IMG/VR virus record: IMGVR_UViG_3300048583_000219
Location: 1 to 59,637 of that record
DNA length: 59,637 bases
Strand: one strand, 5' to 3'
Source of the DNA: a virus
Taxonomy: Duplodnaviria > Caudoviricetes
A model generated the notes under the pieces. It did no database searches and was not told where the DNA came from. It saw only the letters and a program-made list of their open reading frames with translations. A program made the translations under genes and the position numbers. Shown here piece after piece: positions 1,644 through 59,637 of this stretch (the first letter of the stretch is position 1; each line of letters starts with the position of its first letter).

Positions 1644-1644
1644 C

Positions 1645-1899: not shown

Positions 1900-1943
1900 G
1901 TCCGGACATTACACGAATCGGAAGCGTTTTTGCAAGCCTCTCT

Positions 1944-1982: not shown

Positions 1983-1988
1983 GCCCCC

Positions 1989-4064: not shown

Positions 4065-4080
4065 CGGAAAGAAAACCACC

Positions 4081-41450: not shown

Positions 41451-41499
41451 GAGAGTCCCGCGGTTTCCTGGCTGGTTGTCCGCGGGACTCTCTCATTTT
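41451..41499 (+). terminator. Intrinsic terminator after terL
   Basis: GAGAGTCCCGCGG...CCGCGGGACTCTC followed by TCATTTT. Confidence 0.65.
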
Positions 41500-41526
41500 G
41501 GACGGTAGGACCAACCGTCCGATTTC

Positions 41527-41565
41527 GCTGCGCCCGTTATCCGTCGACCGCGGTTGTGGCATTCT
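41527..41565 (+). promoter_or_regulatory. Phage-specific promoter, copy 6 (giant gene)
   Basis: GCTGCGCCCGTT, 21 nt, CATTCT, 7 nt, then ATG 41573. Confidence 0.75.
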
Positions 41566-41572
41566 CCCCGGC

Positions 41573-44500
41573 ATGCCAAAATACAACCGGAGCTTGCCCG
41601 AGGATGAAATTGCTTCCTACCTCGCCCAGGCCAGACAAGGAACCGCCGGGGTCAACCCTCGCGCGCAAACGCTCGCCCGTTCGTCCAGCAACCGCCGCGC
41701 CCAGCGTTTCGGACAGGACATGATGGCGGACCAGATGGAGCAAAACGCCCGGAATGCGGAGGACATCGCGCGGGACCAGGATCGAGCGGCCAAAGAGGCG
41801 GAAGCCGCGGCGAAAGCCCAAGCCACAGAGCAAGCCAAGGCAGAGCGAGCCGCGCATTACCGCAATGTCAGGGAGGCCGAAGCCCAAGGGGCGAAGATTG
41901 TCACCGATATTCCGACCGGCAGGCGGACGGTGGCGACACATCCGGATGGTGGCACGATGTTTGAGAAAGGCGAGGTAGGAGAGCCATTCATCCAACCCAC
42001 TGCGGAAGCTGCCATTTCCAGCGTGCCGGGGATTGGCGACATGATGCGACTCACGCGGCCAGCGGACAAGCAGACACTCGACCAGACAACCGAGGTGGCG
42101 CAAAAGTTCCGGGATGACCGCGGGCGCGAAACGATCGCGCCGTTGCCATCGGACACCGACCCCAAGACCGGAGAAATCACCGGCAAGCTGAAAGACACGT
42201 TTGGTCAGACGGTCCCCGTGAAGCTCGGAACGGATCAACGCATTGCTGCGAGCAACCAGCGGGAAGCCGCCATCAAGGCCGAGAAACAAAAGTTGGACCT
42301 TCGGGAAAACCAGTTGAACCAAGCCAAAGCGCTCTTTGACCCGCAGTGGGCACCGGTGAAGAAGGAGTTCGATGCGCTCGGCAAGGAGTTGAACAGCTTC
42401 CCGAAGACGTTCCGCAAAAACCAAACAACCGGCAAGTGGGAGAAGATCGACCCGAAGACCGATAGCGGCATCCCATACGACCCGCGGGAATTGACAGTGT
42501 GGCAGAAAGAGCGCGATGCCCTTCAAACCCGGTATGAGGCCGCCAAGGCGAAGCACGACCAGATGCTTCCCGCCGCGGAGAACTTCAACCGGAACGAGCG
42601 GGAGATTTCACAGAAGCGCCTCAAACTCGAAGCGGAGCGGCTGAAACTGGCAAGCGGACGCCCCCTTGACGAGGATCTGGCGCAACTACTCGCGGACAAG
42701 CCAGAAAGCGTAAAGCCCGAGGACGTGGCAGCGTTTGGAGACAATCAGCCCCCGGCCAATTCATCCGAACAGCCTGTTGGCGCGAATAACGCACCCGCAG
42801 GAGAGAGCCGCCTGCCGCGAGTCTTGGACGCAATGGACGCCGCCGAAGCTCGGATTCGCCGCGATGCGGCCATCGGAGACATTGACCCGGCGACAGCGGA
42901 GCGCAAGACGCAAGCCCTCGCCGCCCTTAAGCAACAAACGGTAGAACAGGCGAAAACCGAAGCCGCGGCGCAACTTGAAGCGCAAGGCAGGGAAATCGCC
43001 TCGCAGTTCATCGGCACTGGCGTTCGCTCGCAAGAACTGACCGGCGCGAAGCCTGGCAACTATGCCGGCATCAAGAACGAGATTTCCGAGATGGGCGCGT
43101 TCATCATGGGCAAGGACAACACGCCCGAGAAGTCCGCGCAAATGTTCCGCTTGGCGGGCAATGACCTCGATGGAGCCATCAAGCTCGCGGAGGGCGAGAC
43201 GAAAAAGAACCTCACGGCCATGAAAGCCGCCTTCGACAAGGCGGGAATCAAGCCGGAGGATCGCACGCGCATCATTCAGGACGCCGCCAAGTCGCAGGCA
43301 TGGACCGAGAAGGACAAAGACAACCTGCGCAAGCTCTCCACCGGCGATCTGGTCATCAATCCGGGACGGGTGTTCGGCCAGAAAGACGCGATGATTGCCG
43401 AAATCAACGCTTCAGACGCCACACCGGAGGCCAAAGCGGCAGCGGTCGAGCGGCTGGATGCCATGCGTGAAGCCATGGAGGGCAAGCTATTCCGCGCCAC
43501 GGTGGCGGCGGATGATGATTTCGAGGACTTCGCCAATTCCCAATTCAAGGCCGGAAACCGCGACAAGTCTGCCATTCTCGACCAGTGGGCGGAGCAACAG
43601 AAAGCCCGCGGATGGGTCTTCAAGGCCACCGATGCGGTCACAGAAGGCGTGAAAACAGGCTCGGTCGGCGTGGTGAAAACGCTCGTCGGCGGGGCAGCGG
43701 GCGTAAGTGCGCTCGTCGGTGCGGACGGCGCTGCGAAGTCCTTGGGACAGGCGGCTTCCGACATGGGCAACGTGATCCAAAGCGAGAAAGAAGCGGCCAA
43801 GCTCCGCGGAATGACTGGCTCTTTCGGTATCGCAAGCGACCTCACCGACACGGTGGTTCAGATGGCTCCGATGATCGCAGGCGGAACGGTTGCCGGCGGG
43901 CTGAAAGGCATGTCTGCCATCGCCACCCGAGGGATGTCCGCCTACGGATGGGCGGGGGCGCAAGGCTACGAATCCAAGCTGGCGGATGCGGTTTCCATTG
44001 CGGAACAGCAAAAAGGCTCTGCCCTCACCGGCGAGGAAATCGCCGCAGTGCTTGGACGCACGGATACCCAGGTTGCGGCATTCCTCAACGGCGCACAGAC
44101 GGCCATTCTCGCCGCGGCCATGCCGAAAGGTGCGGAACGTGTGGCGCTCGGCGTGAAGTCCGGCAGCATGACGGTTTCTGATTTCCTGCGCCAAGGCGGC
44201 ATGCGGGCCATCAAGGATGGCACGCTTCGCACGGAATTGAAGGCGATGGGCAAGACGATCTTCGCGGATGCCACCGATGAAGCGCTCGAAGAGTTCTCTA
44301 ACCAAGTCCTAGACGGCATGATTTCCGTCGCTGCGCTGGATCAGGAATTGAAGCTCGGGGATCTACTGGAAGAGTCATTCAAGGCCGGCGCGCTCGGCGG
44401 ACTGGTTGGCGGCGGTCTCCCGCAGGTTTATCGAGGCGAAACCAAGGCAGACAAGCACAAGCAGATGGTCGCCGCCCTGCAACAACAGACGCTTGGCACG

Positions 44501-47500
44501 CCCCCGCCCCGGATGGTTTCCACGGCGCTTGCCACCCTCGACCCGCAGGCCAAGGCACCGGACCCCGCGGAAGTCGCAGCCGCCCGCAAGCTCGTCGCGC
44601 CAAGCGTGGCACCGCTCAAGGCAATCGAAACCCTGCGCACGGATCACGAAGCCGCCATCAAGGCAAAGGACTACACCGGAGCGGCCAAGATCGACGAGGA
44701 AATCAACAGGACTTTCACCGAAGCACAAACAGCGGATGCGAAGGATGCCGCGGAAGCAGTGCTTCTCACCCGCGAGCTTGCCGGACTCGAAGAACAGGCC
44801 GCAAGCGACGTTTGGCAGGCGAATCAAGACCTCAACGCCGCCCGCGCCACTGGCGACAAGCAGGCGATCGCAGCGGCGGAAGTCGCGCTTGAACAGGTCC
44901 AGCAAGCCGCCCCGAACGTGCCGCTTGCCCGTGCTGCCGTGAAACTCGCCACGGGTCTAAGCCCTGCCGCTCTTACCGATGCGGAACTCCGCGCCGTGGG
45001 CTACAAACCCAGCGAGGGAGGTCCGCCCGTGCCGATGAGTCCGAAGGAACTGGCAGACAGTGGACTTACCAAGCCGCTGGTCCGCTTCGATTCGGCGGAC
45101 GGATCGCCAATCCTTCTCGACGAGGCCCGCGCCCAGGTCGCGCAAACCTCCGCCTTGGCCGGAAACCGCATCAAGCTCGGTGAACAGGCTGCCATGGAGG
45201 CCGCGCAAGCCCGCGTCGATGCTGCCCAACCCTCACCCACCGCACCCAATGAGCAAGACCCGCAAGGAACACACGGACCGCAAGCCACTCCGCAAGATTC
45301 ACAACCCGCACCCGCCAACCCGAACGCACCGGGTGGAGGATATGGAACTGACCAACGAACCGCTACGTCCGGAACCGAGGCGAAGAAACGGAAAGTTGGA
45401 GAGGGAGGCACGACGGGCAGCACGGCAGGAGCGTCCGGGGCTGCCGTAGAGGCTGGCATTTACGAGTCCGCCCGCGCCGTGGATCCGTCCTTGCCGGAAA
45501 TTCCTGCCCGAGTGGCGGCAGCGTTCCAAGCTGGCGAACCGGTTTCCGTCTCGATGCAGAAAGCCAGCGGGATCGACGTGCCGGAGGGCTACACGCGCCA
45601 AGGGAACGTGTGGACCCCTCCGGACGGACAAACCGTGTCCAAACCCGGACAAACCGTGTCGGAAGCGCCTGCTGGACTCGCACAAGCCGCCAAGGTGGCG
45701 GAATCCGTCAAGGCTGCCGTCATCAAGGCCATGCCCGCCCTGAAAGGCCGGATCGAGATTTCCCAAACGGGCGAGGACGGCGGCGGCGCGGACCTGCTCA
45801 TTGAGTCCGGAGTCATCCGCCTGAACATCCCAGCCATCCAGCGGGCGATCACCCGCGCCGGCGGGGACGTGGCTGCGGTCACGGAATATCTGGAAACCAT
45901 CGTGGCGAGGCATGAGGCGGTTCACGTTGTGCAGACGGAAGCCATCCGCGAGGAATGGAAAGCCGCGGGAAGCCCCGGCGAGTTCATGGACTTCTACCGG
46001 TCCTTCTATGAAGACCTCGCGGGGGAACTGCTCACCCCGGAAGCGGTCAAAGCCGCCCGCCGCATCTACGGCAAGGACAAGAAGACCGGAGAATGGCACT
46101 TCGACAAGATCCCGACCGACTACCAGAAAGCCGCGGAGTTCACGCGGATGCTCGTCGAGGCCAAACTTGACGGCAACACCGAGGCATTCTCGGAACTGTT
46201 CCGCGCCGTCAAGACCCAGGGGGCACGTTCGAAGCTCGCCAAGCTCATCCGCAAGGCGGTCGAGATCCTGACCGGCATGAAGCTCTCGCCCGCGGCGGAA
46301 GCGCACGTTGCCAAGCTCAAGGAACTGTATGCGGAACTCAGCGCCCCGGCAGAAAATGCACAAAAACCGCAAGGAAAGGCCGAATCTGCGGAAAAACCTG
46401 CAATTTCCGGCCTCCGCATCGAAACCAGCGGCAAAACCGCCCGCGTTCTCAACGGGACGGAAGTCCTGTGGGAAGGTCCGGCGGATCAGGCGCAAGCCGA
46501 GCTTGCCAGCCTCAAAGCGGCTCAAGCCTCCCCTATGTTCCTCACCGGGACCGCCATCAAGTCCGCTTTGGAGCGCTTCCCGCGCCTCGGCGGCAAGCTC
46601 CGCGCCGAACTCGAAGCCGCGGCGGATGAAGTCACGGACGCGATCGAAGCCCTGCCCGCCGGTGAACGTGCCCAGGCAGCCGAACAGGCAATTGCGGACC
46701 GGATCAACCTGATCGCGGACAGGGAAGGGGAGCGCACCGGCAAGAAGCGGGAGGAAATCATCGAGGGATTCCGCGCCGTGGCAGGCAAGCGGGCCGCCAA
46801 GCAGGCCGCCAGCATCGAGCAAGCGGTGATCGGCAGCGAAGCCCCGGAAGTTCCCGCGGGCAAGCCAGAGCGCCGCGACACGCCCAATTCCGAAATGACC
46901 GTTGATGTCGTATCAACGTATCTTGATATTTCCCAACTCGTCGGATCGTCGGACCCGCTCTTTCCCGGTGGGGCACTGCAACCGCGCAACCGCGCCGGAC
47001 AGGCCAGCCAGAACCAGCGGGAGGAAATGGTTCAGAACATCCGCGACAAGGACAACCAACATCGGCGCTACATCGAGGGTGCAACCACGGATTCAGGCCG
47101 GATGGTCGTCGCGCCGCTCTTCGGGGCGGACGGCAAGCACATGACCAACGAGGCGGGCAAGCCGATGTTCTACGTCCTGTCCGGCAATGGCCGGCGCAAT
47201 GCGCTCCAAGAAGCCGCTACGCGAAAAGTAGCTGCCAAGGTCACTGCCGGTTTCCGCGAGACTGCCGCGGCCGAAGGGATCGACGTGGAGGGCATGACCC
47301 TGCCGGTTCCAGTGTCCGTCTTCGTGCCGAAGAGCGCCAAGGAGGCGATCGATCTGGCGGAATACTCGAACCGTGACGCGCAACTCTCTGTTTCGAACAC
47401 CGAACAGGCCAACCGGGACGCTGCCAGCATCGAAAAGGCCAAGATTCTCAAGTTGTGGGAGCCGGACGCCACCGGAGACGCTGGAGCGGCCTCCAACCGG

Positions 47501-50500
47501 GACTTCGTGAAAGCCTTTGCCCGTGCCGTGGGCGACGAGGGGATCATCGACAACCGCGGGGCGCTCACCGACGAGGGCGCGAAGCGGATCGAGCGGGCCA
47601 TGGTGGCGATGCTGCTCGGTCCCGAACAGGCTCCGCTCTTGGACATGCTCTTCAACCGGTCCGGTGCCCTCGGGCTGCGCGCCATTCTCGGCGGTGTGGC
47701 ATCGGAAAGCGGTTCCCTGCTCAAACTGGCGGCATCGAAGCCGGATTTCGACCTGTCACCGGTCTTGGCGGATGCCCTACGCACGGCGGTCGAGGCCAAG
47801 CAATCGCTCGCCAACGGGGAAATCCGCGACGTGGGCGAGTTCTTCGACCAGGGGAATCTATTCGAAACAACCGAAATGACACCGGAGCGGCAGCTTGCCC
47901 GCGCCATTGTGGAAAGCCGGAGCCGCAGGGCCATCCGCGACATTCTCGGTGCATACCGTCGCGGCGCGGAAGCGGTGGACACCGGCACCATGTCGATGTT
48001 TGCGGAAGCGGAGACCACCCGCGAGGATCTGATTCTAAAAGCGCTCGAAGCGCGACCCATCGAGCAAGTGATTGCGGAAGTGGAAGCGGAGTTCGGGAAT
48101 CAGTCGGATTTAGCCCGGAAGCTGAAAGTCGGCGTGCCGGCCATCAAGAAGCTGGACCCAGGCCAGCGGCGCGAGTTCGTGGCGGCCGTCAACGCAGAGG
48201 TTGACCGGCTGCGCTCCGGCTCCGTGTCCGCGGAAGAGTGGCAGAAGCTCAATCCGGATGCCCTGAGCGCCAAGGCGGCGCTCTTCCAGCGCTTCCTCGA
48301 TTCACACACGGCGGACACCATCGCCAGCGGCTTCAACCGCCTGCTGTCCCGCCCGGTGCAAGCGGTGTTGGGATCGAGTCCGGCGACCGCACAGGACTAT
48401 CTCGACGCTTTCAAAACCCTGTTCTATGAGAAGTTGCCCAAAGCGGACCTGAAAGACGTTCCAGAAATCAGCGCCAACCCGATCGAACTGCTGCGGGAAA
48501 TCAAGCATCTGGTCGGTGTCACCTTCAACGGGCTGCAAGCCGACCGGCCGGCGGAGACGCTTGGATCATCACCCGCCGCGTCCGTCGTCCCCGATGACTT
48601 CCAGATGTTCCAGCCGGAGTCTGGAACGCTCGGCATCCCGCGCAAGAACATGCCGCAGATCAAGATGCGCAACCGCGAGGCGTTCATGGAATACCTCGAC
48701 GAGAAGGGGATTTCCCATCGAAGCGAAAGCGTGTCCCCGGACAGCATTAAGCCGGTGCAAGCGGAGTTCTCACCGTTCCTTGCCAACCGCGCGAAAGGCA
48801 TCGACTTCCATCGCGCCCTGTTCATTTCCTCGGACAATCATCTTCTCGACGGACATCACCAGTGGCTTGCACAGGCGGACCGCCCCACGGTGGACGTGAT
48901 CCGGATCGACGCGCCGGCCCGCAAGGCATTGGGGCTGATGTTCCAATTCCCGCTCGTGGAGAAATCCGCAGGATCGGCCACCTTGGGATCAAGCCCCGCG
49001 GAAGACCTTCAAGCCGCGGCGAAAGAGTTTGAGGAAGTGCTTGCGAAATACAAACGCGAGGCAGGCCCGCAGGAGTCAGAGCAACAGGTGTTCGACCGTT
49101 TGCGCGACCAGTTCGGAAACGAGAAGGTCGAGGCCACCATTGCCAAGTATGAAGAGCGCTTTGCAAAGCTGGCACCCTTCAAAGAGTCATTCGATGATAC
49201 TCTCCGAGAAATCTCAAAAAACCACGGGGCGGAACCATTGCTTGCACCATTGAAAGGCCGCAAGCGTGGTGTCGAAAAGGCTTTGATTGAATACGGCGGA
49301 CGAGTCTCGCGCATGGGCGACATCGTGCGCGGTTCCATCGTGGCAGATACCATTTATGAAGTGGATGCCATCGCGCAGGAGATTCACCGCCGATGGGAAG
49401 GCAAGATCAAGAAGTTTGAAAACCGGTTCACTCCGCCTCTGCCAAGTGGTTATTCCGATATGATATTCCATGTGGAAATCGCGGACGGTGTGGTTGCAGA
49501 GGTGCAGATTCACATACCGGAAATGCTGCGCGCCAAGGAAGAGGCGGGGCACTTGCTGTATGAGGAATATCGCCGCATCAAGAAAGACCCTGCGAAAAAA
49601 GAGCGCACCATCGAACTCAGCGAACAAATGCTGGAGGTTTATTCGTCAGCGGCAAAGCTGGCAATCGCCCGCGCCAATGCCTTGTCGAAGTCGGCGGGGG
49701 AAACCTCCCTTTCGTATGCCAACTTCATCGCAGTCTTCTCCGACACCGGAACAGGCTTGCCGGTGAAGAGTCCCACGGGGGGGGCATTGGGAGGATCGGC
49801 AATAGGCACGTCTTCCACATCGAAGAACTTGGTGCCTGGTGGGAAATCGGAAGCTCTCATTACGCTTCCTAATACAAAAATCGGTGGTTCAGATCAAGAC
49901 ATTTCTGGTAATTCTAAAAAAATTCTTGGGTCTTCGACCGCCCCGGAGGCGTATGTTCGACTGACCAAAGGCGACAACGGCAACGACCTACTCACTCCCA
50001 CCACGTCCCAAGAGTTTTGGGCGAAACGGAATCCAAAGGCCGCGGCAGCACTCCGCAAGGTGATCGACCGCCATGCGACGGAGAAAGGCTATTTGGCGGA
50101 CAAGTATCTGCACGGCACACCAGGCAACAACCAAGCTATCGCGGACGAATCAGAGAAGAATGATCCCAACATGATCCGGGGCTATGAAGGCACAGCCCCC
50201 GGCGACTTCGATGTTTTCGACTCCGCCAAAACCAAGGGCGGCATGGGACTGCATTTTTTCACAAAGGAAAAGGCGTGGGCAGAATACTTCACGGGGCTCG
50301 AAGACACCAACAACCGCGCGCCAGGCGGCTATCGCTTCATTCCTGCATATCTTCGGATTCGTAAGGCGTGGGACATTGCCAACCCTGAACATCGGCAGTT
50401 GATCGAGGATTTGATTCCGGAAAATCAACGCGGCGAAGTCTTGGCGGGGCAATATGGTTGGATGCCGGTGGAGACACCGGATGTCATTGCCCGAATCAAA

Positions 50501-53500
50501 AGCCTTGGATTCGACGCAGTTCGCCTCAAGGAAGCCGACACGGAAGGGTGGGACGCGGAGGGCTATGACACTGTGGCGGTGTTTGACTCCCGCCAGATCA
50601 AAGACGCCTCGCTTGTGACCTTCGATGCTGCCGGCAACATCATCCCGCCCGCGCAACGATTTAACGATTCCAATCCGTCGATTCTCTATTCCTCCCCGGT
50701 CGCGGAACTCGACCTGTTCGGAGCCGTCGAAGAACGCATTTCCGGCCCGCGCGCCAAGGTGAAGCGCAACGCCGCGGAAACGCTCCGCAAGGCACCGGAG
50801 GCCGCCAAGCAGAACGTCGCCAAAGCCATCGCCAAAGCGGAAGGACTGGCGGACCTCGACCTGTTCGCAGCCGCAGCGGTTTCCAATCTTGACGCGAAGC
50901 CTCGCCGGGGTGAGAGTGTGCCAGATGCAAGCGACCTTCTCGGCGGAACTCGTGGCACCGGCACTCGCAGGGCTGACGGAAACGCAGCTTCGCAACCTGG
51001 TCGATCAAAAGACGTTCGGGACGTGGCTGGAGAAGATGACGACCTCTTCGGATTTGCCGGGAATCGCCCCGGACTCTCCGGAGGCGGGCGAGGCGGCAAC
51101 AGCAACGGCCAACTCGGAACAGACGGCAGCGGACTTGCTGGCGACACTGACGGAGGAACAGCGGGAGGAAGCGGCGAGGCTGGCGTATCTGGCAATCGGC
51201 CCGTCCGCGGAGAACGAGATTCTGGCGCTGACGTAATCGAGCTTGGCTCCGATGGACTGCCGGCGGAAGTGCCGGTTCCGGAGAATGAAGCGGACCGCAA
51301 TGCGCGGATCGACCCGCGGGAAAACCTCGCGCCGAAAGGGCAGGCTTCCAAGATCAAGGCCAACTTCGAGGTGATCGAATTGTTGCGCCTGCTGCAAGCG
51401 GAAGGCCGCAACCCGACCGAAGCCGAAAAGCGCACACTGCTGACTTATTCCGGCTGGGGACACTCGAAAGGCGCTTTCGACGACGCCAAGGCGGAAGCCT
51501 TCGCCCGAGTTTCCGACAACGGCGATCCTGATGCCTACTACAACCGCATGTGGCGGACGATGCCGCGCGACCAGTTCAAGCGGAACTACAACACCCGATC
51601 AAAAGACCGCCAAGGCAACGAGTCGCCTTCCATTTTCGAACTCTACTCGTGGAATGAGAAGTGGGGCGAAACTCACCGGGAACTGAAAGAGCGCCTGAGC
51701 GAGGCGGAATACAAGGCCGCCAACCGTTCAATCCTAAACGCCCACTACACCACGCCGGAAATCATCGATGCGCAATGGCGCATGGTCGAAAAGCTCGGGT
51801 TCAAGGGCGGGCGCGTACTCGAGCCGGGAGCCGGCATCGGTCACTACATCGGCACTCAGCCGGAGCGCCTGGCAGCCCGGTCGATCTGGTCCGCGGTGGA
51901 ACTCGACAAGGTGACATCGCAGATTCTCGCCCTGCTGTATCCGCAAGTGCGGGTGAACTCTGTATCCTCCGCGGAAGGTCGGGAAGTGACCGGCCAAGGC
52001 TTCGAGGAAGCGCTGATTCCGAACAACTCGCAAGACCTCGTGATTTCCAACGTGCCGTTCCACGAGAAAGGCCCGTGGCAGTCGCAGAAGGAATACAAGC
52101 AGGAGTTAAACCTTCACAACTACTTCTTCGCCCGCGCCCTGGACAAGGTGAAGCCGGGGGGATTGATCTGCTTCATCACCTCGTCCTCGACGATGGAGAA
52201 CAACGCCCGCCAGCGGGCATTCCTCGCATCAAAGGGCGATCTGGTCGCCGCGGTGCGCCTGCCGAACAATGCCTTCAAGGAAAATGCCGGCACGGAAGTC
52301 ACCACCGACATCATCATCATGCGCAAGCCGGATGGCCGCAAGGTGGAGTCTCATGCGTGGATGGAGACCCGCACGGTCGGACGCGACAAGGTGCGCTTGG
52401 AACGCGGGGATCAAACCGCCGTCCAATACCTCAAGGGGATTCATCCGGAAACGACATGGCTGGATGCAACCTTGGATGCCGCGCGCGCCGCATGGGTGGA
52501 AGCCCGCCGGGAGCGCGAGGCTATCAAGGACGGCAAGGAGCTTGCCGCGGAACGAAAAGCCGCGGATGAAGTGACATCGGCCGCATGGAAATCCTACGTC
52601 GCTGCCTTCGAGCGTGCCGAACAGGCCGCCCCGTCGTGGAAACTGGAAGCGGAGGTTCCCATCCGCGTGAACGAATACTTCGCCAACAACCCGGCGAATG
52701 CCTTCGGCAAGCACTCGCTGGCCGGATCGATGTATCGGGCGGACGAATACACGCTGGAACCGGACCCGGAGGGCGGCACGCTCACCGAGCGCTTCGAGGC
52801 TGTGATTGAAAGCCTTCCGGAAAACATCACCGGCCAGGGCAGCACGATCAAGCTCGCCACCGCGAAGGACATGGAGCGCGGAGACAAGCCTTTCTCGTTC
52901 GTCGAGCGGGATGGGAAGTTCTGGCAAGTGATGAAAGACCGCCTCGAACCGGTCGAGTGGTCGAGTCAGGAAATCATGGTGTTCCGGTCATGGGCAGGCG
53001 TGCGGAATGCCGTGCGCGAACTGGTCGCCGCCGAACTGGACCCGACCGCCGCCACCGATGAACTTGCGGACCTGCGCAAGGCACTCAACGAGGCATACGG
53101 TCGCCACATCGGCCTTTACGGACCGATTTCCAAGACGGGCCGCGGCGCGAAGCACGATCACCTTGCCGAAGACCCGGATTTTCCTCTCACGCTCGCCTTG
53201 GAGACGGAAGAGCGGTACACCGACAAGAAGGGCAAGCCCGCCGTGCGCTACCTCAAGGCGGACATTTTCCGCACGCGCATGAACAAGCCGCTGATTCCCC
53301 CGACCACGGCGGAAACCACGGAAGAGGCGCTTACCAACTCGCTCGTCTGGATCGGCTATCCAAACGTGCCCTACATGGCGAAACTGCTCGGCAAGCCGGT
53401 GGAACAGGTCGAGGCGGATCTGGTCGAATCGGAACTGGCGTTCATGGACCCGGTGAGCGGGCAATACTCCATCCGTGATTCCTACCTGTCCGGATTCGTG

Positions 53501-56500
53501 CAAGGGAAGCTCGATACCGCCCGCGAGGCTGCGAAAGAAGACCCGGCTTTCAACCGCAACGTGAAAGCGCTGGAAGCCGCCCTGCCGGAGCGCAAGGGCA
53601 TTGCCGCCATCGGCGTGTCGATGAATGCGCCGTGGCTGCCGCGGGAAGTTCTCGCCGGATACCTCGAAAGCATCGGACTGGCGGAGGCGAAGGTTGAATA
53701 CAACGCCGCTGCAAATATCTGGTCGGTCTTCGGTGTGGGCAATTCGGATAGGTTCATGCTCAACGGTGGCACTACCGACGACGGAATCAGTTACAAGGGA
53801 ATTGCTACGGTCGAACTGGTTCAGCACGCCTTGGAAATGACGGACCCGGATGTGACCGGGACCATCGGCACCGGCAAGGACAAGCGCACGGTTCCTTATC
53901 CGGCTGGCAACGCCTTGGCAAAGACCAAGATGAACCAGATGAAGGAGGATTTCGTCAAGTGGGTCAAAACCACGGACGCGATGATCGGGGATCAGGCGGT
54001 TCAGGACATCGTGGTGAACTCCTTCAACGAAAAGGCCAACGGGCACGTCCCTCCTTCTTTCGAGGGTAAGCACATCACGCTTCCCGGTGCGTCGGAGGAA
54101 GTCTATCGCACGGGCATCCGCCGCGGGGCCATCGCCCGCATGCTGGATCAAGGCGCGGGCATGATCGCGCACGGGGTTGGTTTCGGGAAGACTTACACGC
54201 TCATTGGACTGGCGATGGAGTTGAAGCGCCTCGGCAAGGCCAACCGGCCGATGATTACCGTCGAGAACGCCACCCTCCAACAGTTCGCCGCCTCGTTCCG
54301 CGTGGCATATCCGCAGGCGAAACTCTTGGTTGCGGATTCCAAGTCATTCGAGGGCAAGAACCGCCGGCGCTTCATCGCCCGCATCGCTACCGGGGATTAC
54401 GATGCGATTGTGATGGCACACTCGCAGTTCAACCTCATCGCCAATCATCCGGACGTGGTGAACAGCTACATTGACGAACAGGTTGCGGAACTTGAAGCCG
54501 CCCGCGCCCTCACGGATTCCGCAGACCGCCGCGCGGTGGCCGCCTTGGAAACCGCCAAGATCAACTTGGAGAACTCCCGCAAGAAGATGCTCGATAGCCT
54601 GGCGAAGCGCCAAGACCTCGGCCTTTATTGGGAGAATTTGGGAGTCGATGCCCTGCTGGTGGACGAAGCCCACCGGTTCAAGAACGCGCCCATCATCACG
54701 CGCATGCGCAATCTCAAGAACCTGCCCACCGGCACGCCGTCACAACGCGCGATCGGCATGGTTCTCAAGACCCGCTCGGTGCAGAACCGGATGGCCGGCC
54801 GCGGCGTGTATTTCGCCACCGGCACGCCGATTTCCAACTCCATCGCGGAATCATACATCATGATCCGCTACACGAATCCCAACCTGCTCCTGGAGCAAGG
54901 GATTGAGAACTTCGACCAGTTCGCCGCGCAATACTGCACGAGCACCACGCAGGTAGAATCCAACTGGAAGGGCAAGATTTCCTCGGAAACCCGGTTCTCA
55001 CGCTACATCAACGGCGATGCACTGATGAACCTCGTGGCTTCCTCGTGGGACATCAAGATTGATCCGGATCTTGCGGGCATCAAGCGCCCCACCGTTAAGG
55101 GCGGCGGACCGGAATCCATCCTTGTCGAGCCGGGTCCGGCCAATCAGGCGTTCAACGCATGGGTGACGAACACCATCGCCGCGCAATGGGACGATCCGGC
55201 GTACTGGCAAAGCCTTGGCGGACGCAAGCAGGCACTCGAAGACGATCCATGGCTTTCCGCCGTGCCGATTATGACGATGCAGGCCGGCATTGCCGCGGCG
55301 CTCGATGTCCGCATGGTGGACCCGAACGCGCCGGACTTCGAGAATAGCAAGGTCAACACCGCGGTCCGCAAGACGGTGGAACTCTACAAGGAGTCCAACG
55401 ACCGCCTTGGAGCGCAAGCGGTGTTTGTCGATCTGCAAGGGGATTTCTCCATGGATCACCTTTTAACCTTCGCCGGAGACCCCGGCTTGTCCGAAAAGGG
55501 ACTGGAACCGCCCGAACTCGATAGCGAGGGCAATGCAGTGCATGAGAAGAAGGGCAAGAAAAAGCGCCAGTTCGACATTTACAACGACATCCGGGACAAG
55601 CTCGTGGCGGCCAAGATTCCCAAGTCGGAAATCGGCATGGTCCGCGCCGGAATGTCCAAGGACGCACGCGCCGAACTCTTCGAGAAGGTCAACGCCGGCC
55701 AAGTCCGCATTATCATCGGATCATCCGATACGATGGGCGTTGGCGTGAACATCCAAGAGCGCCTTTTTGCCGCGCATCACCTCATGCCGCCGCGGGACTT
55801 CAAGCCATCGGCCATGGAACAGCGCAATGGTCGTATCCTGCGCCAAGGCAACCAGCATTACGATTTGGAAGTGGAGGCGTTCGTGGAAACCGCGGAGCGC
55901 GAGACCGGCCAGAAATTCCGCAAGGAAAGCCGGGGCCGCCAAGTGCCGGACCTCGATGCGGCGAAAGCCGCCCTCGAAGGCAATGCGGACGCTCTTGCCA
56001 AGGCGGAAGCCGCCGCGGAGAAGTATCACATCCGCATCCTCGAATACGGCATGGAAAAGTCCATCGACTCCGCCATGTATTCGATGATGGTCGCCAAGCT
56101 GCTCGGCTTCAACCAAGTGCTCACCGGCAACGGCGGCAACTCGTTTGAAGATCCCTCGGACGCGATCACGATGAACATGGCGGAAATGGCCGCCCGCACC
56201 ATCGGAGACCCGCTCTTGATCCGCCTCGTGGAACTGGAACGCGATGTTCGCTCGCTGGAACTGGAATATCGCGGTTGGCAGGACGATGTTTCGAGCGCCC
56301 GCGAGACACTTCGCCGCACCCGCAGCGACATCCGTTGGTATGAAACCCGCATGGAGGAAACCGAGCGTTATGCCGAAGTAGTCGGCAAGGTGGATTCCAA
56401 TGATGAAGCCTTCGCCGTGTGGGAGTTTGGCGGCAAGACGATCGACCGCAACAAGCCGAAGGATGCTCCGAAAGGCTGGCAACAGCCGAAGATCACCGAA

Positions 56501-59500
56501 GCCCTCGACCTGTTCCTTGCGGAAGAGAACTCGAAGCTGAAGAACTCGGACCGGAAAAAGTCCACGGTGGAAATCAAGGTGGATGGCGTGCCGTTCGCGG
56601 TGGAACTCCACCAGCAACTCACGCAGGAACATTCCGCGGTCGGATACGTCCAGTGGGGCGGCATGAACGGCATGAAGGACGTGCCATACAAGAGTTTCAG
56701 CGGTGCCGGATCACTGCTTTCCGCCATTCCCGGCCTTGCCAAGCAGGCGCGCAACATGCCAGCGGAGTACAGGGGGACGATTGATTACATGACGAAGAAA
56801 ATCCCCGCCTTGGAGCGCTCGGCGGAAACCGTCTTCGAGCGGGATGCCGAATTGCGCGCGCTCTACGCGGAACAGGATCGGGTGAAGGAAGCGCTTGCCG
56901 CCGCGGCAGCGCCCACCCCGCCGCCGACTCCGGCCGCGCCCAAGCGGAAGAAACCCGCGGACCTTCCGCCCATGGTGCCCGCAGATCCCAAGCTGATGAC
57001 CGCGGAAGTCCGCGCCATCCTCGAACGCGCCACCATCCAGGATGACGTGCTCACCCTGCCGGAAGAACTCCCGCGCAAGGTGTATGAGCGGGTAAACAAA
57101 ACGCTTGAATCCGCCGGCGGCCAATGGGACCGCGCCGCCAAGGGGCACGTCTTCGCCGGAGACCCGAGGGAAGTGCTCGGACTCGCCAAAGCGGAGACCG
57201 CCACACCGGAGCAAGTCTCCCGTGTGGAATCCCTGCTTCGCTCTGAAGGCCCGGAGACCTACCCCGGCAAAGGACTTGCGCCGGCGCTGGCGACTTTGGG
57301 GAGCTCGCCGGCTTCATGGGGCGATTACTCCGCCCAACCCGGTCCGCACAAGTCAGGCTTCGAGATTCGAGCCCGCAACATCGTGGAAGGTTTCATGTCG
57401 CCCGACTTCAAGTATCGGGTTGGCAACGATTTCCGAGTTCCAGAAGGGCGCAAGCTCATCGCTTCCAACTTCGCGGAATACAAAGAAGGCAAATACAAGC
57501 TCGGGCTGTATCGCCTGCTGCTGCTGGAAAACGCTCAAGGACAGCGATACGTCGAAGTCGAAAAAGGCATCGGCTACAACGGCGGAACGACTGGCGAAAC
57601 GCTTGAGTTTGAGCGCATCTCGAATGATGCAATCGACCGTAATTCCGCACTTTCCGAGCGCTCGCGCAAACTGTGGGAAGCTCATCCTGCGGGGCAACAA
57701 CAAGCCTCGTTGTTCTCCTCACCCGCGCCCGAGCAATCCTCCGCGGTGCAGGAAGCGCTTGCCATGATGCCGGAAGTGTATCGCCAAGTCTTCGAGGGCA
57801 TCGAGGGCGGCGCTTCCGTCACGGAAGTGACCGGCAAGTTCAACATCACGCCGCGCGCGGTGGACAACATCCTCAACCAAGTGCGGGCGAGAATCCACGT
57901 CGCAATAAGAGCTGCAAGTGCGGAGGGATTGCAACCCGCAATGAAAGGCGACAGATTTGCTGGTGGGCGACCCGATCTTGCCCTTGGCGGGCGTCCAGAA
58001 ATGGCGGCAATTCATCAAATCCGCAACGAGTCTGGAGTCCCAGACGTGCGCAAATGGGCAGAAGTGGATGCCGCTGCGCGCGACATGCTCAAACAAGATT
58101 ATCAAGGCACATACGATGCGCTGCTTGAAAAAGCGAAAGCCCTGCAACCAATGACGGATTTGGAAGTCTCGGCGACGAAGATGATTCTGGCCCGAGAGAC
58201 GTTGAGTGGAAAGCTCATGGACCCGACGGAACGCGTGAAACTTGCCATGTTGGAATATGGCCACACGGAAATAGGTTCCGAAACCGCGCGAGCACTCGCA
58301 ATTCGCCGCGATCCAGAAATGACACCGGCGGAACGTCACGCCAGAACCATTGCATCGGCCATGCTGCATCCCGATCCGCAAACACGAGCGAGGATGAGAA
58401 AAAACCCACAACTTCATGCCGAAATCCTTGCCGGATGGATGCAGCGGGTGGACCGCATCAAAGCGGACCTGCTTGCCCAGGGGATCGATCTGGACGCCTC
58501 GCTGGCCGCCTTCCGGGCCTCGCAGGATGCCAAGGCGCAAGCCGCGGACGAGAGCCCGCAAACCACCCGCATCATTGACGAGCAAATCCGCAAGCTCAAC
58601 CGCCGCGAAAAAGGCGTGATCGAAGCCATCCGCGGCGGCGCTCTCGTCTCCAAGGCGGCCTTCATCACCGGCCTCTCCACCGATGAAGTGAAAGCGATCT
58701 ACGGGCGCTTCCTCACCGACATCCGCGCCGCCATGGCGGAAAGCGCCAAACGCTACCTTGCCGGTGCCCTCGGATCGTCGCCCGCAGACATGATGGGCAG
58801 CATTCTCGAAAACCTCGGCTTGCCGGATATTTCTGCCATCGACGATACGGTGAAGGGATTTGTGGACCGCCGCGGCGAGAAACCTCGCGCCCCGCGCAAG
58901 CCCCGCAAGGCCAAGACCAAGGCGGAAGCCCCGGAAGCCCCGGAGGCTCCAGAGGCACCGGCGGTCCCCGAGCTCACTCCGGAGCAACAAGCCCGCCTGG
59001 ATCAAGAGTGGCAGCGCTTCTTGAATTCCCCGCTGTCCACCTGGAAGGCGTTTTCGCAGGAAATGGGCTGGCTGTCTTGGACTCAGGAGCAAGCCGACGC
59101 TTTCCTTGAGAAAGCCGAAGCCATCAAGAAAGACTGGACCAAGCAAAAAGACCTCATCGACGCACGCGAGGGGATCAACGAAACGAATGGCACCTTCGAC
59201 ATTCACGACCCGGCCAGCGTCAAGGAAGTCATCGATGCCTTCGCCGTCGCCCGCGGTTCTTTCCCGGATGCGCTCATGGAGTTCTGGCGCGCATCGATCC
59301 TGACGGGCCCGCAAACGCATGTGGTCAACACCTCGTCCAACGTCATCAACGCGGCGTGGAATTTGCTGCCGCGCCGCGGCGTCGAGGCGGCCATCAATAC
59401 GATCATCGGAGACCCGAAGAGCGCCACTTTTGCGGAGTTCGTGCCGATTGCGAAAAACCTCCGCAAAGGAGTCCAACTCGCCGCCCGCAACGCCCTGCGG

Positions 59501-59637
59501 GCATGGCAGATCGAAACCCGCGTTTTTGAATCCTACGCCATGGCGGAGGCGGTGAATCTCGATTTCAGCGGCGTGAAATCCGAATACATCCCACCGGCCT
59601 TGGGCGGAAAACTCGGCAAGGTGATGCGGTCTCTCTC
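41573..59637 (+). CDS. Giant DarB-like polyvalent protein, ~6,526 aa, continuing across the origin to 1643. Domains: HExxH metallopeptidase, DdrB-like ParB, ParB-like, RelA/SpoT, ADP-ribosyltransferase, N6-adenine MTase, SNF2 helicase, sigma4-like HTH
   Basis: The track lists no stop-terminated ORF in this frame after 41573, so the frame is open to the end. Motifs translated by hand: HEAVH (45911), LQPRNR...SGNGR, LDGHHQW, GYSD...EVQIH, YLHGT...VAVFDSRQIK, LEPGAGIG/SNVPF, HGVGFGKT/DEAH/QRNGRILRQGN. Confidence 0.9.
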   Translation, partial: MPKYNRSLPEDEIASYLAQARQGTAGVNPRAQTLARSSSNRRAQRFGQDMMADQMEQNARNAEDIARDQDRAAKEAEAAAKAQATEQAKAERAAHYRNVREAEAQGAKIVTDIPTGRRTVATHPDGGTMFEKGEVGEPFIQPTAEAAISSVPGIGDMMRLTRPADKQTLDQTTEVAQKFRDDRGRETIAPLPSDTDPKTGEITGKLKDTFGQTVPVKLGTDQRIAASNQREAAIKAEKQKLDLRENQLNQAKALFDPQWAPVKKEFDALGKELNSFPKTFRKNQTTGKWEKIDPKTDSGIPYDPRELTVWQKERDALQTRYEAAKAKHDQMLPAAENFNRNEREISQKRLKLEAERLKLASGRPLDEDLAQLLADKPESVKPEDVAAFGDNQPPANSSEQPVGANNAPAGESRLPRVLDAMDAAEARIRRDAAIGDIDPATAERKTQALAALKQQTVEQAKTEAAAQLEAQGREIASQFIGTGVRSQELTGAKPGNYAGIKNEISEMGAFIMGKDNTPEKSAQMFRLAGNDLDGAIKLAEGETKKNLTAMKAAFDKAGIKPEDRTRIIQDAAKSQAWTEKDKDNLRKLSTGDLVINPGRVFGQKDAMIAEINASDATPEAKAAAVERLDAMREAMEGKLFRATVAADDDFEDFANSQFKAGNRDKSAILDQWAEQQKARGWVFKATDAVTEGVKTGSVGVVKTLVGGAAGVSALVGADGAAKSLGQAASDMGNVIQSEKEAAKLRGMTGSFGIASDLTDTVVQMAPMIAGGTVAGGLKGMSAIATRGMSAYGWAGAQGYESKLADAVSIAEQQKGSALTGEEIAAVLGRTDTQVAAFLNGAQTAILAAAMPKGAERVALGVKSGSMTVSDFLRQGGMRAIKDGTLRTELKAMGKTIFADATDEALEEFSNQVLDGMISVAALDQELKLGDLLEESFKAGALGGLVGGGLPQVYRGETKADKHKQMVAALQQQTLGTPPPRMVSTALATLDPQAKAPDPAEVAAARKLVAPSVAPLKAIETLRTDHEAAIKAKDYTGAAKIDEEINRTFTEAQTADAKDAAEAVLLTRELAGLEEQAASDVWQANQDLNAARATGDKQAIAAAEVALEQVQQAAPNVPLARAAVKLATGLSPAALTDAELRAVGYKPSEGGPPVPMSPKELADSGLTKPLVRFDSADGSPILLDEARAQVAQTSALAGNRIKLGEQAAMEAAQARVDAAQPSPTAPNEQDPQGTHGPQATPQDSQPAPANPNAPGGGYGTDQRTATSGTEAKKRKVGEGGTTGSTAGASGAAVEAGIYESARAVDPSLPEIPARVAAAFQAGEPVSVSMQKASGIDVPEGYTRQGNVWTPPDGQTVSKPGQTVSEAPAGLAQAAKVAESVKAAVIKAMPALKGRIEISQTGEDGGGADLLIESGVIRLNIPAIQRAITRAGGDVAAVTEYLETIVARHEAVHVVQTEAIREEWKAAGSPGEFMDFYRSFYEDLAGELLTPEAVKAARRIYGKDKKTGEWHFDKIPTDYQKAAEFTRMLVEAKLDGNTEAFSELFRAVKTQGARSKLAKLIRKAVEILTGMKLSPAAEAHVAKLKELYAELSAPAENAQKPQGKAESAEKPAISGLRIETSGKTARVLNGTEVLWEGPADQAQAELASLKAAQASPMFLTGTAIKSALERFPRLGGKLRAELEAAADEVTDAIEALPAGERAQAAEQAIADRINLIADREGERTGKKREEIIEGFRAVAGKRAAKQAASIEQAVIGSEAPEVPAGKPERRDTPNSEMTVDVVSTYLDISQLVGSSDPLFPGGALQPRNRAGQASQNQREEMVQNIRDKDNQHRRYIEGATTDSGRMVVAPLFGADGKHMTNEAGKPMFYVLSGNGRRNALQEAATRKVAAKVTAGFRETAAAEGIDVEGMTLPVPVSVFVPKSAKEAIDLAEYSNRDAQLSVSNTEQANRDAASIEKAKILKLWEPDATGDAGAASNRDFVKAFARAVGDEGIIDNRGALTDEGAKRIERAMVAMLLGPEQAPLLDMLFNRSGALGLRAILGGVASESGSLLKLAASKPDFDLSPVLADALRTAVEAKQSLANGEIRDVGEFFDQGNLFETTEMTPERQLARAIVESRSRRAIRDILGAYRRGAEAVDTGTMSMFAEAETTREDLILKALEARPIEQVIAEVEAEFGNQSDLARKLKVGVPAIKKLDPGQRREFVAAVNAEVDRLRSGSVSAEEWQKLNPDALSAKAALFQRFLDSHTADTIASGFNRLLSRPVQAVLGSSPATAQDYLDAFKTLFYEKLPKADLKDVPEISANPIELLREIKHLVGVTFNGLQADRPAETLGSSPAASVVPDDFQMFQPESGTLGIPRKNMPQIKMRNREAFMEYLDEKGISHRSESVSPDSIKPVQAEFSPFLANRAKGIDFHRALFISSDNHLLDGHHQWLAQADRPTVDVIRIDAPARKALGLMFQFPLVEKSAGSATLGSSPAEDLQAAAKEFEEVLAKYKREAGPQESEQQVFDRLRDQFGNEKVEATIAKYEERFAKLAPFKESFDDTLREISKNHGAEPLLAPLKGRKRGVEKALIEYGGRVSRMGDIVRGSIVADTIYEVDAIAQEIHRRWEGKIKKFENRFTPPLPSGYSDMIFHVEIADGVVAEVQIHIPEMLRAKEEAGHLLYEEYRRIKKDPAKKERTIELSEQMLEVYSSAAKLAIARANALSKSAGETSLSYANFIAVFSDTGTGLPVKSPTGGALGGSAIGTSSTSKNLVPGGKSEALITLPNTKIGGSDQDISGNSKKILGSSTAPEAYVRLTKGDNGNDLLTPTTSQEFWAKRNPKAAAALRKVIDRHATEKGYLADKYLHGTPGNNQAIADESEKNDPNMIRGYEGTAPGDFDVFDSAKTKGGMGLHFFTKEKAWAEYFTGLEDTNNRAPGGYRFIPAYLRIRKAWDIANPEHRQLIEDLIPENQRGEVLAGQYGWMPVETPDVIARIKSLGFDAVRLKEADTEGWDAEGYDTVAVFDSRQIKDASLVTFDAAGNIIPPAQRFNDSNPSILYSSPVAELDLFGAVEERISGPRAKVKRNAAETLRKAPEAAKQNVAKAIAKAEGLADLDLFAAAAVSNLDAKPRRGESVPDASDLLGGTRGTGTRRADGNAASQPGRSKDVRDVAGEDDDLFGFAGNRPGLSGGGRGGNSNGQLGTDGSGLAGDTDGGTAGGSGEAGVSGNRPVRGERDSGADVIELGSDGLPAEVPVPENEADRNARIDPRENLAPKGQASKIKANFEVIELLRLLQAEGRNPTEAEKRTLLTYSGWGHSKGAFDDAKAEAFARVSDNGDPDAYYNRMWRTMPRDQFKRNYNTRSKDRQGNESPSIFELYSWNEKWGETHRELKERLSEAEYKAANRSILNAHYTTPEIIDAQWRMVEKLGFKGGRVLEPGAGIGHYIGTQPERLAARSIWSAVELDKVTSQILALLYPQVRVNSVSSAEGREVTGQGFEEALIPNNSQDLVISNVPFHEKGPWQSQKEYKQELNLHNYFFARALDKVKPGGLICFITSSSTMENNARQRAFLASKGDLVAAVRLPNNAFKENAGTEVTTDIIIMRKPDGRKVESHAWMETRTVGRDKVRLERGDQTAVQYLKGIHPETTWLDATLDAARAAWVEARREREAIKDGKELAAERKAADEVTSAAWKSYVAAFERAEQAAPSWKLEAEVPIRVNEYFANNPANAFGKHSLAGSMYRADEYTLEPDPEGGTLTERFEAVIESLPENITGQGSTIKLATAKDMERGDKPFSFVERDGKFWQVMKDRLEPVEWSSQEIMVFRSWAGVRNAVRELVAAELDPTAATDELADLRKALNEAYGRHIGLYGPISKTGRGAKHDHLAEDPDFPLTLALETEERYTDKKGKPAVRYLKADIFRTRMNKPLIPPTTAETTEEALTNSLVWIGYPNVPYMAKLLGKPVEQVEADLVESELAFMDPVSGQYSIRDSYLSGFVQGKLDTAREAAKEDPAFNRNVKALEAALPERKGIAAIGVSMNAPWLPREVLAGYLESIGLAEAKVEYNAAANIWSVFGVGNSDRFMLNGGTTDDGISYKGIATVELVQHALEMTDPDVTGTIGTGKDKRTVPYPAGNALAKTKMNQMKEDFVKWVKTTDAMIGDQAVQDIVVNSFNEKANGHVPPSFEGKHITLPGASEEVYRTGIRRGAIARMLDQGAGMIAHGVGFGKTYTLIGLAMELKRLGKANRPMITVENATLQQFAASFRVAYPQAKLLVADSKSFEGKNRRRFIARIATGDYDAIVMAHSQFNLIANHPDVVNSYIDEQVAELEAARALTDSADRRAVAALETAKINLENSRKKMLDSLAKRQDLGLYWENLGVDALLVDEAHRFKNAPIITRMRNLKNLPTGTPSQRAIGMVLKTRSVQNRMAGRGVYFATGTPISNSIAESYIMIRYTNPNLLLEQGIENFDQFAAQYCTSTTQVESNWKGKISSETRFSRYINGDALMNLVASSWDIKIDPDLAGIKRPTVKGGGPESILVEPGPANQAFNAWVTNTIAAQWDDPAYWQSLGGRKQALEDDPWLSAVPIMTMQAGIAAALDVRMVDPNAPDFENSKVNTAVRKTVELYKESNDRLGAQAVFVDLQGDFSMDHLLTFAGDPGLSEKGLEPPELDSEGNAVHEKKGKKKRQFDIYNDIRDKLVAAKIPKSEIGMVRAGMSKDARAELFEKVNAGQVRIIIGSSDTMGVGVNIQERLFAAHHLMPPRDFKPSAMEQRNGRILRQGNQHYDLEVEAFVETAERETGQKFRKESRGRQVPDLDAAKAALEGNADALAKAEAAAEKYHIRILEYGMEKSIDSAMYSMMVAKLLGFNQVLTGNGGNSFEDPSDAITMNMAEMAARTIGDPLLIRLVELERDVRSLELEYRGWQDDVSSARETLRRTRSDIRWYETRMEETERYAEVVGKVDSNDEAFAVWEFGGKTIDRNKPKDAPKGWQQPKITEALDLFLAEENSKLKNSDRKKSTVEIKVDGVPFAVELHQQLTQEHSAVGYVQWGGMNGMKDVPYKSFSGAGSLLSAIPGLAKQARNMPAEYRGTIDYMTKKIPALERSAETVFERDAELRALYAEQDRVKEALAAAAAPTPPPTPAAPKRKKPADLPPMVPADPKLMTAEVRAILERATIQDDVLTLPEELPRKVYERVNKTLESAGGQWDRAAKGHVFAGDPREVLGLAKAETATPEQVSRVESLLRSEGPETYPGKGLAPALATLGSSPASWGDYSAQPGPHKSGFEIRARNIVEGFMSPDFKYRVGNDFRVPEGRKLIASNFAEYKEGKYKLGLYRLLLLENAQGQRYVEVEKGIGYNGGTTGETLEFERISNDAIDRNSALSERSRKLWEAHPAGQQQASLFSSPAPEQSSAVQEALAMMPEVYRQVFEGIEGGASVTEVTGKFNITPRAVDNILNQVRARIHVAIRAASAEGLQPAMKGDRFAGGRPDLALGGRPEMAAIHQIRNESGVPDVRKWAEVDAAARDMLKQDYQGTYDALLEKAKALQPMTDLEVSATKMILARETLSGKLMDPTERVKLAMLEYGHTEIGSETARALAIRRDPEMTPAERHARTIASAMLHPDPQTRARMRKNPQLHAEILAGWMQRVDRIKADLLAQGIDLDASLAAFRASQDAKAQAADESPQTTRIIDEQIRKLNRREKGVIEAIRGGALVSKAAFITGLSTDEVKAIYGRFLTDIRAAMAESAKRYLAGALGSSPADMMGSILENLGLPDISAIDDTVKGFVDRRGEKPRAPRKPRKAKTKAEAPEAPEAPEAPAVPELTPEQQARLDQEWQRFLNSPLSTWKAFSQEMGWLSWTQEQADAFLEKAEAIKKDWTKQKDLIDAREGINETNGTFDIHDPASVKEVIDAFAVARGSFPDALMEFWRASILTGPQTHVVNTSSNVINAAWNLLPRRGVEAAINTIIGDPKSATFAEFVPIAKNLRKGVQLAARNALRAWQIETRVFESYAMAEAVNLDFSGVKSEYIPPALGGKLGKVMRSL
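49639..49860 (-). CDS. Nested antisense gene (73 aa); candidate antitoxin for the RelA/SpoT domain
   Basis: Protein-like sequence with its own TTGATC-17-TATTAG promoter 8 nt before the ATG; the host frame here is S/T/G-rich linker. Confidence 0.55.
   Translation of the reverse strand: MRASDFPPGTKFFDVEDVPIADPPNAPPVGLFTGKPVPVSEKTAMKLAYEREVSPADFDKALARAIASFAADE
50925..51236 (+). CDS. Nested same-strand, alternative-frame gene (103 aa; weakly TnpV-like)
   Basis: TTGACG-17-GAGAGT, 7 nt, ATG; helical sequence; the host frame is G/R/D-rich linker. Confidence 0.45.
   Translation: MQATFSAELVAPALAGLTETQLRNLVDQKTFGTWLEKMTTSSDLPGIAPDSPEAGEAATATANSEQTAADLLATLTEEQREEAARLAYLAIGPSAENEILALT
59511..59637. 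repeat. Terminal direct repeat, copy 2
   Basis: Identical to nt 1-127. Confidence 0.97.

Follow-up and report, generated by a model that had tools for sequence, protein, structure and literature searches.

The window analyzed here, a virus record of 59,637 bases (IMGVR_UViG_3300048583_000219), contains a giant open reading frame (ORF) for a polyvalent protein (41498..59635, plus strand), which exceeds 6046 codons and has its 3′ end open in the window. Wholly inside this ORF, on the opposite strand, lies a small gene of 73 codons plus a stop (49639..49860, minus strand; ATG at 49858-49860, stop at 49639-49641), the stop of which falls within the last helix of a Tas1/Apk-like, toxin-type domain of the RelA/SpoT-type nucleotide pyrophosphokinases (49112..49696, plus strand). 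The antisense frame is conserved among homologues, its amino acid conservation exceeds that of permuted sequences, expression motifs accompany it in the family, and stand-alone copies exist; for these reasons, 49639..49860 is very probably a genuine protein-coding gene. The explanation that we consider best overall, and likely to hold, is that of a real antisense gene with its own promoter, the product of which inhibits the synthetase domain.

Conservation of the nested frame

A preliminary description of this DNA, made from the sequence without database searches, had reported a minus-strand ORF ending at the C-terminus of the RelA/SpoT domain, and the ORF is present, with a peptide identical to the one quoted. 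It occupies the wobble-aligned antisense frame, in which third codon positions coincide with the third positions of the sense codons. A stop in this frame requires a sense tyrosine after a pyrimidine-ending codon, or a sense histidine or glutamine after a T-ending codon. In the giant gene, stop-free runs of at least 74 codons in the same antisense frame hold 62% of the codons, the longest run being 310 codons, and antisense ORFs longer than the small gene are abundant in the window, reaching 638 amino acids (aa) with frames running off the window end included. The sense-frame linker across the small gene (49712..49936, plus strand; hereafter the tail) contains one tyrosine, no histidine and no glutamine, so that, for the window taken alone, the frame would be open by chance with a probability of 0.36. 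Because so many codons lie in long stop-free runs, the open antisense frame by itself is not significant in the giant gene, and for the same reason long antisense ORFs elsewhere in this gene are explained by composition unless a permutation-type test says otherwise. Long minus-strand ORFs over the giant gene are found at 45299..46822 (507 aa), 52988..54280 (430 aa) and 57719..59476 (585 aa). Conservation among homologues does exceed chance; the product of the open-frame chances over 8 homologous loci, with the window excluded, was 8e-4.

The module formed by the domain and the small gene is bordered in the giant frame by two LGSS motifs (48983..48994 on the upstream side and 49925..49936 on the downstream side, both plus strand), both found where they had first been reported. 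The LGSS-to-LGSS block had 2450 relatives at an expectation value (E) ≤0.001 among 1.84 billion representatives, the giant relatives being 43-58% identical. About half of the 155 matches examined run on through the stretch behind the domain, which had been described as serine/threonine/glycine (S/T/G) filler, and conserved sense motifs occur there in 69 proteins. DNA was obtained for 97 loci, of which 74 carry the tail. Single-sequence locus searches of viral and genome contigs returned no relative, and the relatives were found by alignment-based searches. Matches in annotated phage and plasmid collections were distant and partial, covering 36-53% of the query in 2 phage records and 1 plasmid record, and the 5 matches from a search of 401 genomes of the G001 phylum were no closer than those already known.

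The antisense frame was open in all 74 tail-bearing loci, for 79-283 codons, and in every one of them it ended at a stop made by a conserved sense tyrosine in the last helix of the domain. Its translations across these loci are visibly related small proteins. Across a span of 70 codons, 42/42 non-redundant loci had both the sense frame and this antisense frame open, compared with 4-17 of the 42 for the other four frames, and the same antisense frame in control regions was open over 70 codons in 1/41, 5/41 and 8/42 loci. Interruption of the frame in homologues, on which the preliminary description had proposed that the gene be checked, was thus seen neither in the tail-bearing set nor in the non-redundant one. 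The family comprises mostly acidic proteins of 63-90 aa, with a net charge of -4 for the window protein and a negative net charge in 35 of 42 members, and the small gene of the window matches the family hidden Markov model (HMM) at E 9.8e-17.

Conservation was compared with a null in which the permutation of synonymous sense codons was confined to the 80-codon region, which keeps the sense protein and the local codon composition fixed; the alignment was made from the sense proteins of the 42 non-redundant loci, and 200 permutations were run. The BLOSUM sum-of-pairs score of the antisense translation was 0.489, against an expected 0.211 ± 0.015 (a z-score, z, of 19). Antisense stops numbered 2, whereas 22.0 ± 3.9 were expected, the frame was open in 40 loci versus 24 expected in this test, and antisense tryptophan codons were counted 66 times versus 38 expected. 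On every measure, the observed values were reached by 0 of the 200 permutations. In three control regions, namely the two halves of the synthetase domain and a downstream region, the corresponding z was -1.0, 3.2 and 1.6, with open frames in 1, 6 and 4 loci and stops slightly above expectation (z about 2). Tryptophan codons in the wobble-aligned antisense frame of these control regions (41-42 loci) were below the permutation expectation (z -2.6 to -4.2), and the deviations in tryptophan codons and stops point to a general codon-context bias at NNC-CAN and NNT-CAN junctions.

The loci are not near-identical copies. In a strict set of 19 loci below 40% pairwise identity, permutation gave a z of 8.7 and codon usage one of 12.5, stops numbered 0 versus 9.2 expected, and the control region had a z of 1.0; in the window's own clade (the window, L005, L001 and L018), z was 6.3, compared with 0.2 in the control region. 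A separate count of C before glutamine or histidine codons (15/16 versus 26% elsewhere) was not conditioned on the preceding residue, and the permutation tests are preferred to it. In the reverse test, with the antisense protein fixed and its synonymous codons permuted, the sense excess had a z of 5.5, with 0 sense stops versus 9.6 expected. Since the antisense excess reached a z of 19 and the sense excess one of 5.5, the amino acid constraint in the overlap lies mainly with the antisense product. The tail itself (residues 201-275 of the sense block) had a mean predicted local distance difference test (pLDDT) value of 44-56 in an AlphaFold2 (AF2) model built from a 41-row alignment (A4), and is predicted to be disordered. 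The earlier view of it as S/T/G filler is borne out to this extent, its conservation being mostly dictated by the antisense protein.

Expression signals and stand-alone copies

Directly upstream of the small-gene ATG is an AT-rich patch (49861..49925) with a GC content of 32%, compared with 61% in the giant ORF, and only 0.08% of the 65-nucleotide (nt) windows of the giant ORF have a GC content as low. The patch contains the candidate expression signals of the small gene (49861..49897, minus strand), which consist of a -35-like TTGATC (49892-49897), a 17-nt spacer and the hexamer TATTAG (49869-49874) placed 8 nt before the ATG, together with AGGAAG (49865-49870), a sequence resembling a Shine-Dalgarno (SD) motif and overlapping TATTAG. 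Patch and hexamers are present just as first described. This geometry recurs in two other loci, L018 and L006, as TTGAC(C/T)-17-TAGGAG-8-ATG, in which TAGGAG could be a -10 element or an SD motif.

Among the 32 embedded non-redundant loci, an SD motif ending 4-12 nt before the ATG was present in 28, compared with 7.4 ± 2.3 expected from codon resampling, and an extended -10 element (TGnTAnnnT) ending 14-30 nt before the ATG was present in 17, compared with 1.1 ± 0.9 expected. An ATG stands at the aligned start column in 57/89 aligned ORFs; at the position of the window's ATG, L001 has a GTG, and the called relative P0159 begins with valine. The earlier claim that the small gene has its own promoter is supported for the family, in which SD motifs and extended -10 elements are enriched, and is borne out only partly by the hexamers of the window, where the -10 is non-canonical and the geometry is common to the two other loci.

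In 10 loci (L040-L046, L057, L058 and L064), the sense ORF comes to its end shortly behind the last domain helix, and the small gene stands as an independent gene converging on it, with ~30-43 nt shared at the sense 3′ end. Along the rest of the small gene in these stand-alone loci, the sense frame contains 2-3 stops and there is no long sense ORF. The stand-alone loci lay outside the HMM training set, and the family HMM matched them at E 1.7e-10 to 1.1e-3. Because these convergent copies match the family HMM, the family exists, beyond that short 3′ stretch, without any overlap. One of them (L058:1-2055, plus strand) encodes a portal protein (Phage_portal_3, E 8.8e-18) fused C-terminally to the Tas1-like domain, with the small gene convergent and stand-alone. 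In two distant relatives, a co-directional small ORF follows a synthetase-like protein that ends at the domain (L091:2082-2285 and L090:2063-2398, both plus strand); the C-terminal part of these small ORFs recalls the family motif G-x-x-I-S/T-x-x-x-Y/F, and they have no family HMM match, their kinship being unproven.

The position of the module within the sense protein varies. It follows an ART-PolyVal domain (L072), precedes a ddrB-ParB domain (L049) or ASCH and L5-gp82-like domains (L045), or forms the C-terminus of the portal protein (L058), and in giant relatives it lies at residues about 1490 to 5390. Such varied placement is the behaviour of a portable cassette.

Searches for known relatives of the small protein gave little. 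Five Pfam families matched 1/42 members each (best E 0.026), as did three NCBIfam families (best E 0.062), and a single PHROGs family matched 1/42 members at E 0.0088; none of these matches was convincing. A word-seeded profile search of 5.8 billion protein clusters retrieved only 10 called relatives, four of them named 'hypothetical protein' and six nameless, and the ESM Atlas contained no usable match. Foldseek searches of BFVD returned nothing at E ≤0.001. The nearest BFVD entries (A0A977KMG2, A0A516L053 and I1TRI3) are uncharacterised phage proteins of 68-73 aa with TM scores of 0.56-0.63, Foldseek probabilities of 0.90-0.97 and E 0.19-0.31, a weak lead to what may be stand-alone relatives or look-alikes. 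A profile match to a plant proteinase inhibitor (1fyb_A; E 4.6e-4 over 28 residues) was taken as spurious.

The synthetase domain and its modelled complex with the small protein

The domain next to the small gene was delineated by profile comparison, Pfam and AF2. The sense profile (A1) matched Tas1 in the PDB (6ox6_A, E 7.4e-17) and also three GTP pyrophosphokinases at E 0.002-0.009, and in the AF2 model of the sense block the pLDDT of the synthetase domain was >90 to ~residue 190. The Pfam RelA_SpoT match (PF04607; 49301-49567, plus strand; residues 2602-2690 of the giant protein) had E 3.6e-4 and 21.2 bits, short of the gathering cut-off of 27. By sequence, the domain thus resembles Tas1, a type VI (p)ppApp-synthetase toxin.

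The small protein was modelled by AF2 from a 42-row alignment with a pLDDT of 82.9 and a predicted template modelling score (pTM) of 0.67, as four strands followed by two helices; the codons of its C-terminal helix lie across from those for the end of the last helix of the domain. A complex model of the domain with the small protein gave a median score of 0.64, versus 0.25 for the best of 3 controls. The mark set for this score is reached by 58/80 solved complexes and 2/110 mismatched pairs, counts that are rough since our own alignments were used. The runs share at least 90% of their contacts, and the pLDDT of the partner is at least 84. The modelled interface comprises residues 86-95, 113-120 and 173-193 on the toxin side, including many invariant columns of alignment A1, and residues 17, 33-35 and 63-73 on the side of the small protein. 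Complex prediction had been proposed earlier as a check, and in these models the pair passes its controls, which supports binding of the small protein to the domain on its most conserved residues.

The rest of the giant protein has the features of a polyvalent protein, one giant phage polypeptide (here >6046 aa) joining several conflict-related domains. In addition to the sub-threshold RelA_SpoT match, Pfam reported ddrB-ParB, Eco57I methylase, ResIII/Helicase_C and weaker others. In a giant relative that is 52% identical (P0005), LGSS also follows the module (TILGSSP..., residues ~2715-2725), and the closer relatives P0003 and P0004 are without LGSS at that downstream place. The GC content falls to 0.535 at 49001-50000 of the window, versus 0.59-0.62 in the flanking kilobases of the giant gene, and is 0.53 in the LGSS-to-LGSS block. 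The module may have entered the giant gene from a source of lower GC content.

Function, origin and relation to known systems

Family members always lie at the 3′ edge of a Tas1/Apk-like domain and in the opposite orientation. This linkage, together with the complex model, makes it probable that the small protein is an inhibitor of the adjoining synthetase domain. The reading of the pair as toxin and antitoxin or immunity protein, put forward in the preliminary description, is supported by the strictness of the linkage and by a complex model that passes its controls, and neutralisation is what we infer from them. In the proposed mechanism, a putative promoter of its own in the AT-rich patch would drive the small gene, whose transcription would not depend on that of the giant late gene. 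The small protein would bind the catalytic cleft of the synthetase domain, largely by the C-terminal helix, and block it, serving the lysogen or the producing cell as antitoxin or immunity protein. Over the small gene, the only demand on the sense strand would be to stay open, encoding a disordered linker, and domain and antidote would make up one inseparable cassette able to sit anywhere in a polyvalent protein.

Several results weigh against this interpretation. A look-up of RNA sequencing runs for the stretch 49300-50100 of the window returned none. The family HMM gave no match in 9/98 sources, some of them truncated or distant relatives. The sense tail keeps a small conservation excess of its own (z 5.5), because of which it may also matter as a peptide. 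Members of the window clade are without the clear TGnTAnnnT and GGAGG signals of most other members, and a sigma-70 scanner does not call the window promoter, because TATTAG is without the conserved final T. The complex score is the model's own confidence, and a pass could reflect memory of the solved Tas1-Tis1 complex if the pair resembles it. Moreover, Foldseek found nothing in the PDB at E ≤0.001 for the small protein, and Tis1 was not matched in PDB sequences by profile A3 or by two single members at E up to 10.

The alternative that survives best, although we hold it to be rather unlikely, is that the small protein is real and not an inhibitor, serving instead as a chaperone, stabiliser or packaging adaptor for the domain, or as a regulator of some other target. 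Linkage to the domain would be equally expected of a chaperone, full-length Tas1-like effectors need chaperones for stability according to the text of PMC10083569, and no similarity of the small protein to known immunity proteins was found. However, the modelled contact falls on conserved active-site residues of the domain and not on a peripheral surface, and the small proteins are mostly net negative and are encoded beside a toxin domain. Immunity proteins are usually small acidic partners encoded in this way.

Far less probable is a function at the level of nucleic acid, in which an antisense RNA or a promoter acts on the giant gene, modulating it through RNA pairing or transcriptional interference, and the open frame is incidental. 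Promoter-like motifs are indeed conserved inside the sense coding sequence, and convergent transcription would necessarily give an RNA complementary to the giant mRNA. Yet, a role of this kind leaves unexplained the avoidance of stops (2 versus 22 expected), the enrichment of tryptophan codons and the conservative amino acid substitution in exactly one frame, as well as the conserved ATG with its SD motif, the stand-alone copies and the confident fold. Least tenable of all is a chance ORF, a by-product of a GC-rich gene and of a linker rich in serine, threonine, glycine and proline and poor in tyrosine, histidine and glutamine, which the stop-free runs over 62% of the codons, the many longer antisense ORFs and the open-frame chance of 0.36 in the window would allow, but which is rejected by all comparative tests, by the chance product of 8e-4 over homologous loci, by the stand-alone copies and by the divergence of the 19 strict-set loci.

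The closest counterparts of the proposed pair of synthetase and inhibitor are the Tas1 (Apk1)-Tis1 pair of Pseudomonas aeruginosa and the MuF-Apk2 systems. MuF-Apk2 toxins of prophages are described as neutralised by the Tis1-like binder IapK and the hydrolase Aph1, and the immunity genes of Tas1 and Apk2 toxins as lying downstream of the toxin gene in the same direction (PMC12226406, PMC10083569 and PMC11699363); IapK and Tis1 are described as blocking the acceptor site (PMC12226406 and PMC11782079). As in these systems, a Tas1-like synthetase is carried here by a virion-associated phage protein and is genetically tied to a small non-enzymatic partner, and as with Tis1 and IapK, the partner is placed by the model on conserved active-site residues of the domain. 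In contrast to them, the partner here is antisense, nested in the window and convergent where it stands alone, the domain lies within a protein of >6000 aa rather than at its C-terminus, and no sequence or Foldseek similarity to Tis1 was detected for the small protein.

In toxic small alarmone synthetase (toxSAS) systems (FaRel, FaRel2, PhRel and CapRel), a toxic RelA/SpoT-like synthetase is, as described in PMC11782079, neutralised at the active site by a small, compact folded protein, which in the case of ATfaRel2 has 73 residues. The protein from the window is likewise small, at 73 aa, and is predicted to fold and probably to act as partner of a RelA/SpoT-like synthetase. Unlike here, toxSAS are one-strand operons or fused proteins; no homology to them was detected, and the predicted order of strands and helices differs from that of ATfaRel2 as described in the same text. 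For polyvalent proteins, Iyer, Burroughs, Anand, de Souza and Aravind (2017, PMC5512222) reported RelA/SpoT domains both in these proteins and in MuF fusions and proposed host manipulation through alarmone synthesis, and their main text names no partner or inhibitor for the RelA/SpoT domain. The giant protein of the window is like the polyvalent proteins described there in having ddrB-ParB, methylase, SNF2-type helicase, peptidase-like and RelA/SpoT domains. In the literature searched, supplements not being covered, we found no account of a partner nested antisense to such domains; the word 'antisense' has 0 occurrences in PMC12226406, PMC5512222 (main text), PMC5576092, PMC11699363 and PMC10083569, the supplements of which might list relevant neighbourhoods.

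In layout, the stand-alone loci L040, L057 and L058 show the convergent arrangement of colicin immunity genes. For pore-forming colicins, the immunity gene converges on the toxin gene and is driven by a promoter of its own, which permits its expression even when the toxin gene is off; colicin immunity genes occupy intergenic positions outside the toxin reading frame, and their products are membrane proteins. The window gene differs in lying inside the toxin reading frame, and the proteins are unrelated. With the antisense overlapping genes of bacteria and phages, the gene shares the encoding of two proteins from opposite strands and the excess synonymous-site constraint in the longer gene; the open frame is kept, amino acid conservation is in excess, and at the family level the gene has its own start codon, ribosome-binding motif and candidate promoter. 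Most reported antisense overlapping genes are single-lineage ORFs with debated function. Unlike most of them, the gene described here belongs to a large family and has an adjoining functional partner, stand-alone relatives and conserved expression motifs.

As to origin, we lean, by a small margin of confidence, towards a scenario that starts from an immunity gene placed as a convergent neighbour, the state that the stand-alone loci show. The toxin frame would later have been extended across the strand complementary to this gene, in the only antisense frame able to tolerate it, and so have become fused to further domains. The linker would then be an overprint of the immunity gene, and toxin and antidote would form one inseparable portable cassette. 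If this is true, recombination could never part the toxin from its immunity, and standard annotation would miss the immunity gene.

The evidence for the small gene draws on dozens of diverged loci and on control regions, on relatives that stand alone and on expression motifs that are conserved, and the gene would rank among the best comparatively supported fully nested antisense protein-coding genes in phages. It would add a new, unannotated partner family for alarmone-synthetase toxins of the Tas1/Apk type, and it would account for the ability of virion-delivered polyvalent proteins to carry such a domain and leave the producer unharmed. Gene callers forbid long opposite-strand overlaps and so systematically hide such genes, which suggests that the 'linkers' behind other effector domains deserve the same test.

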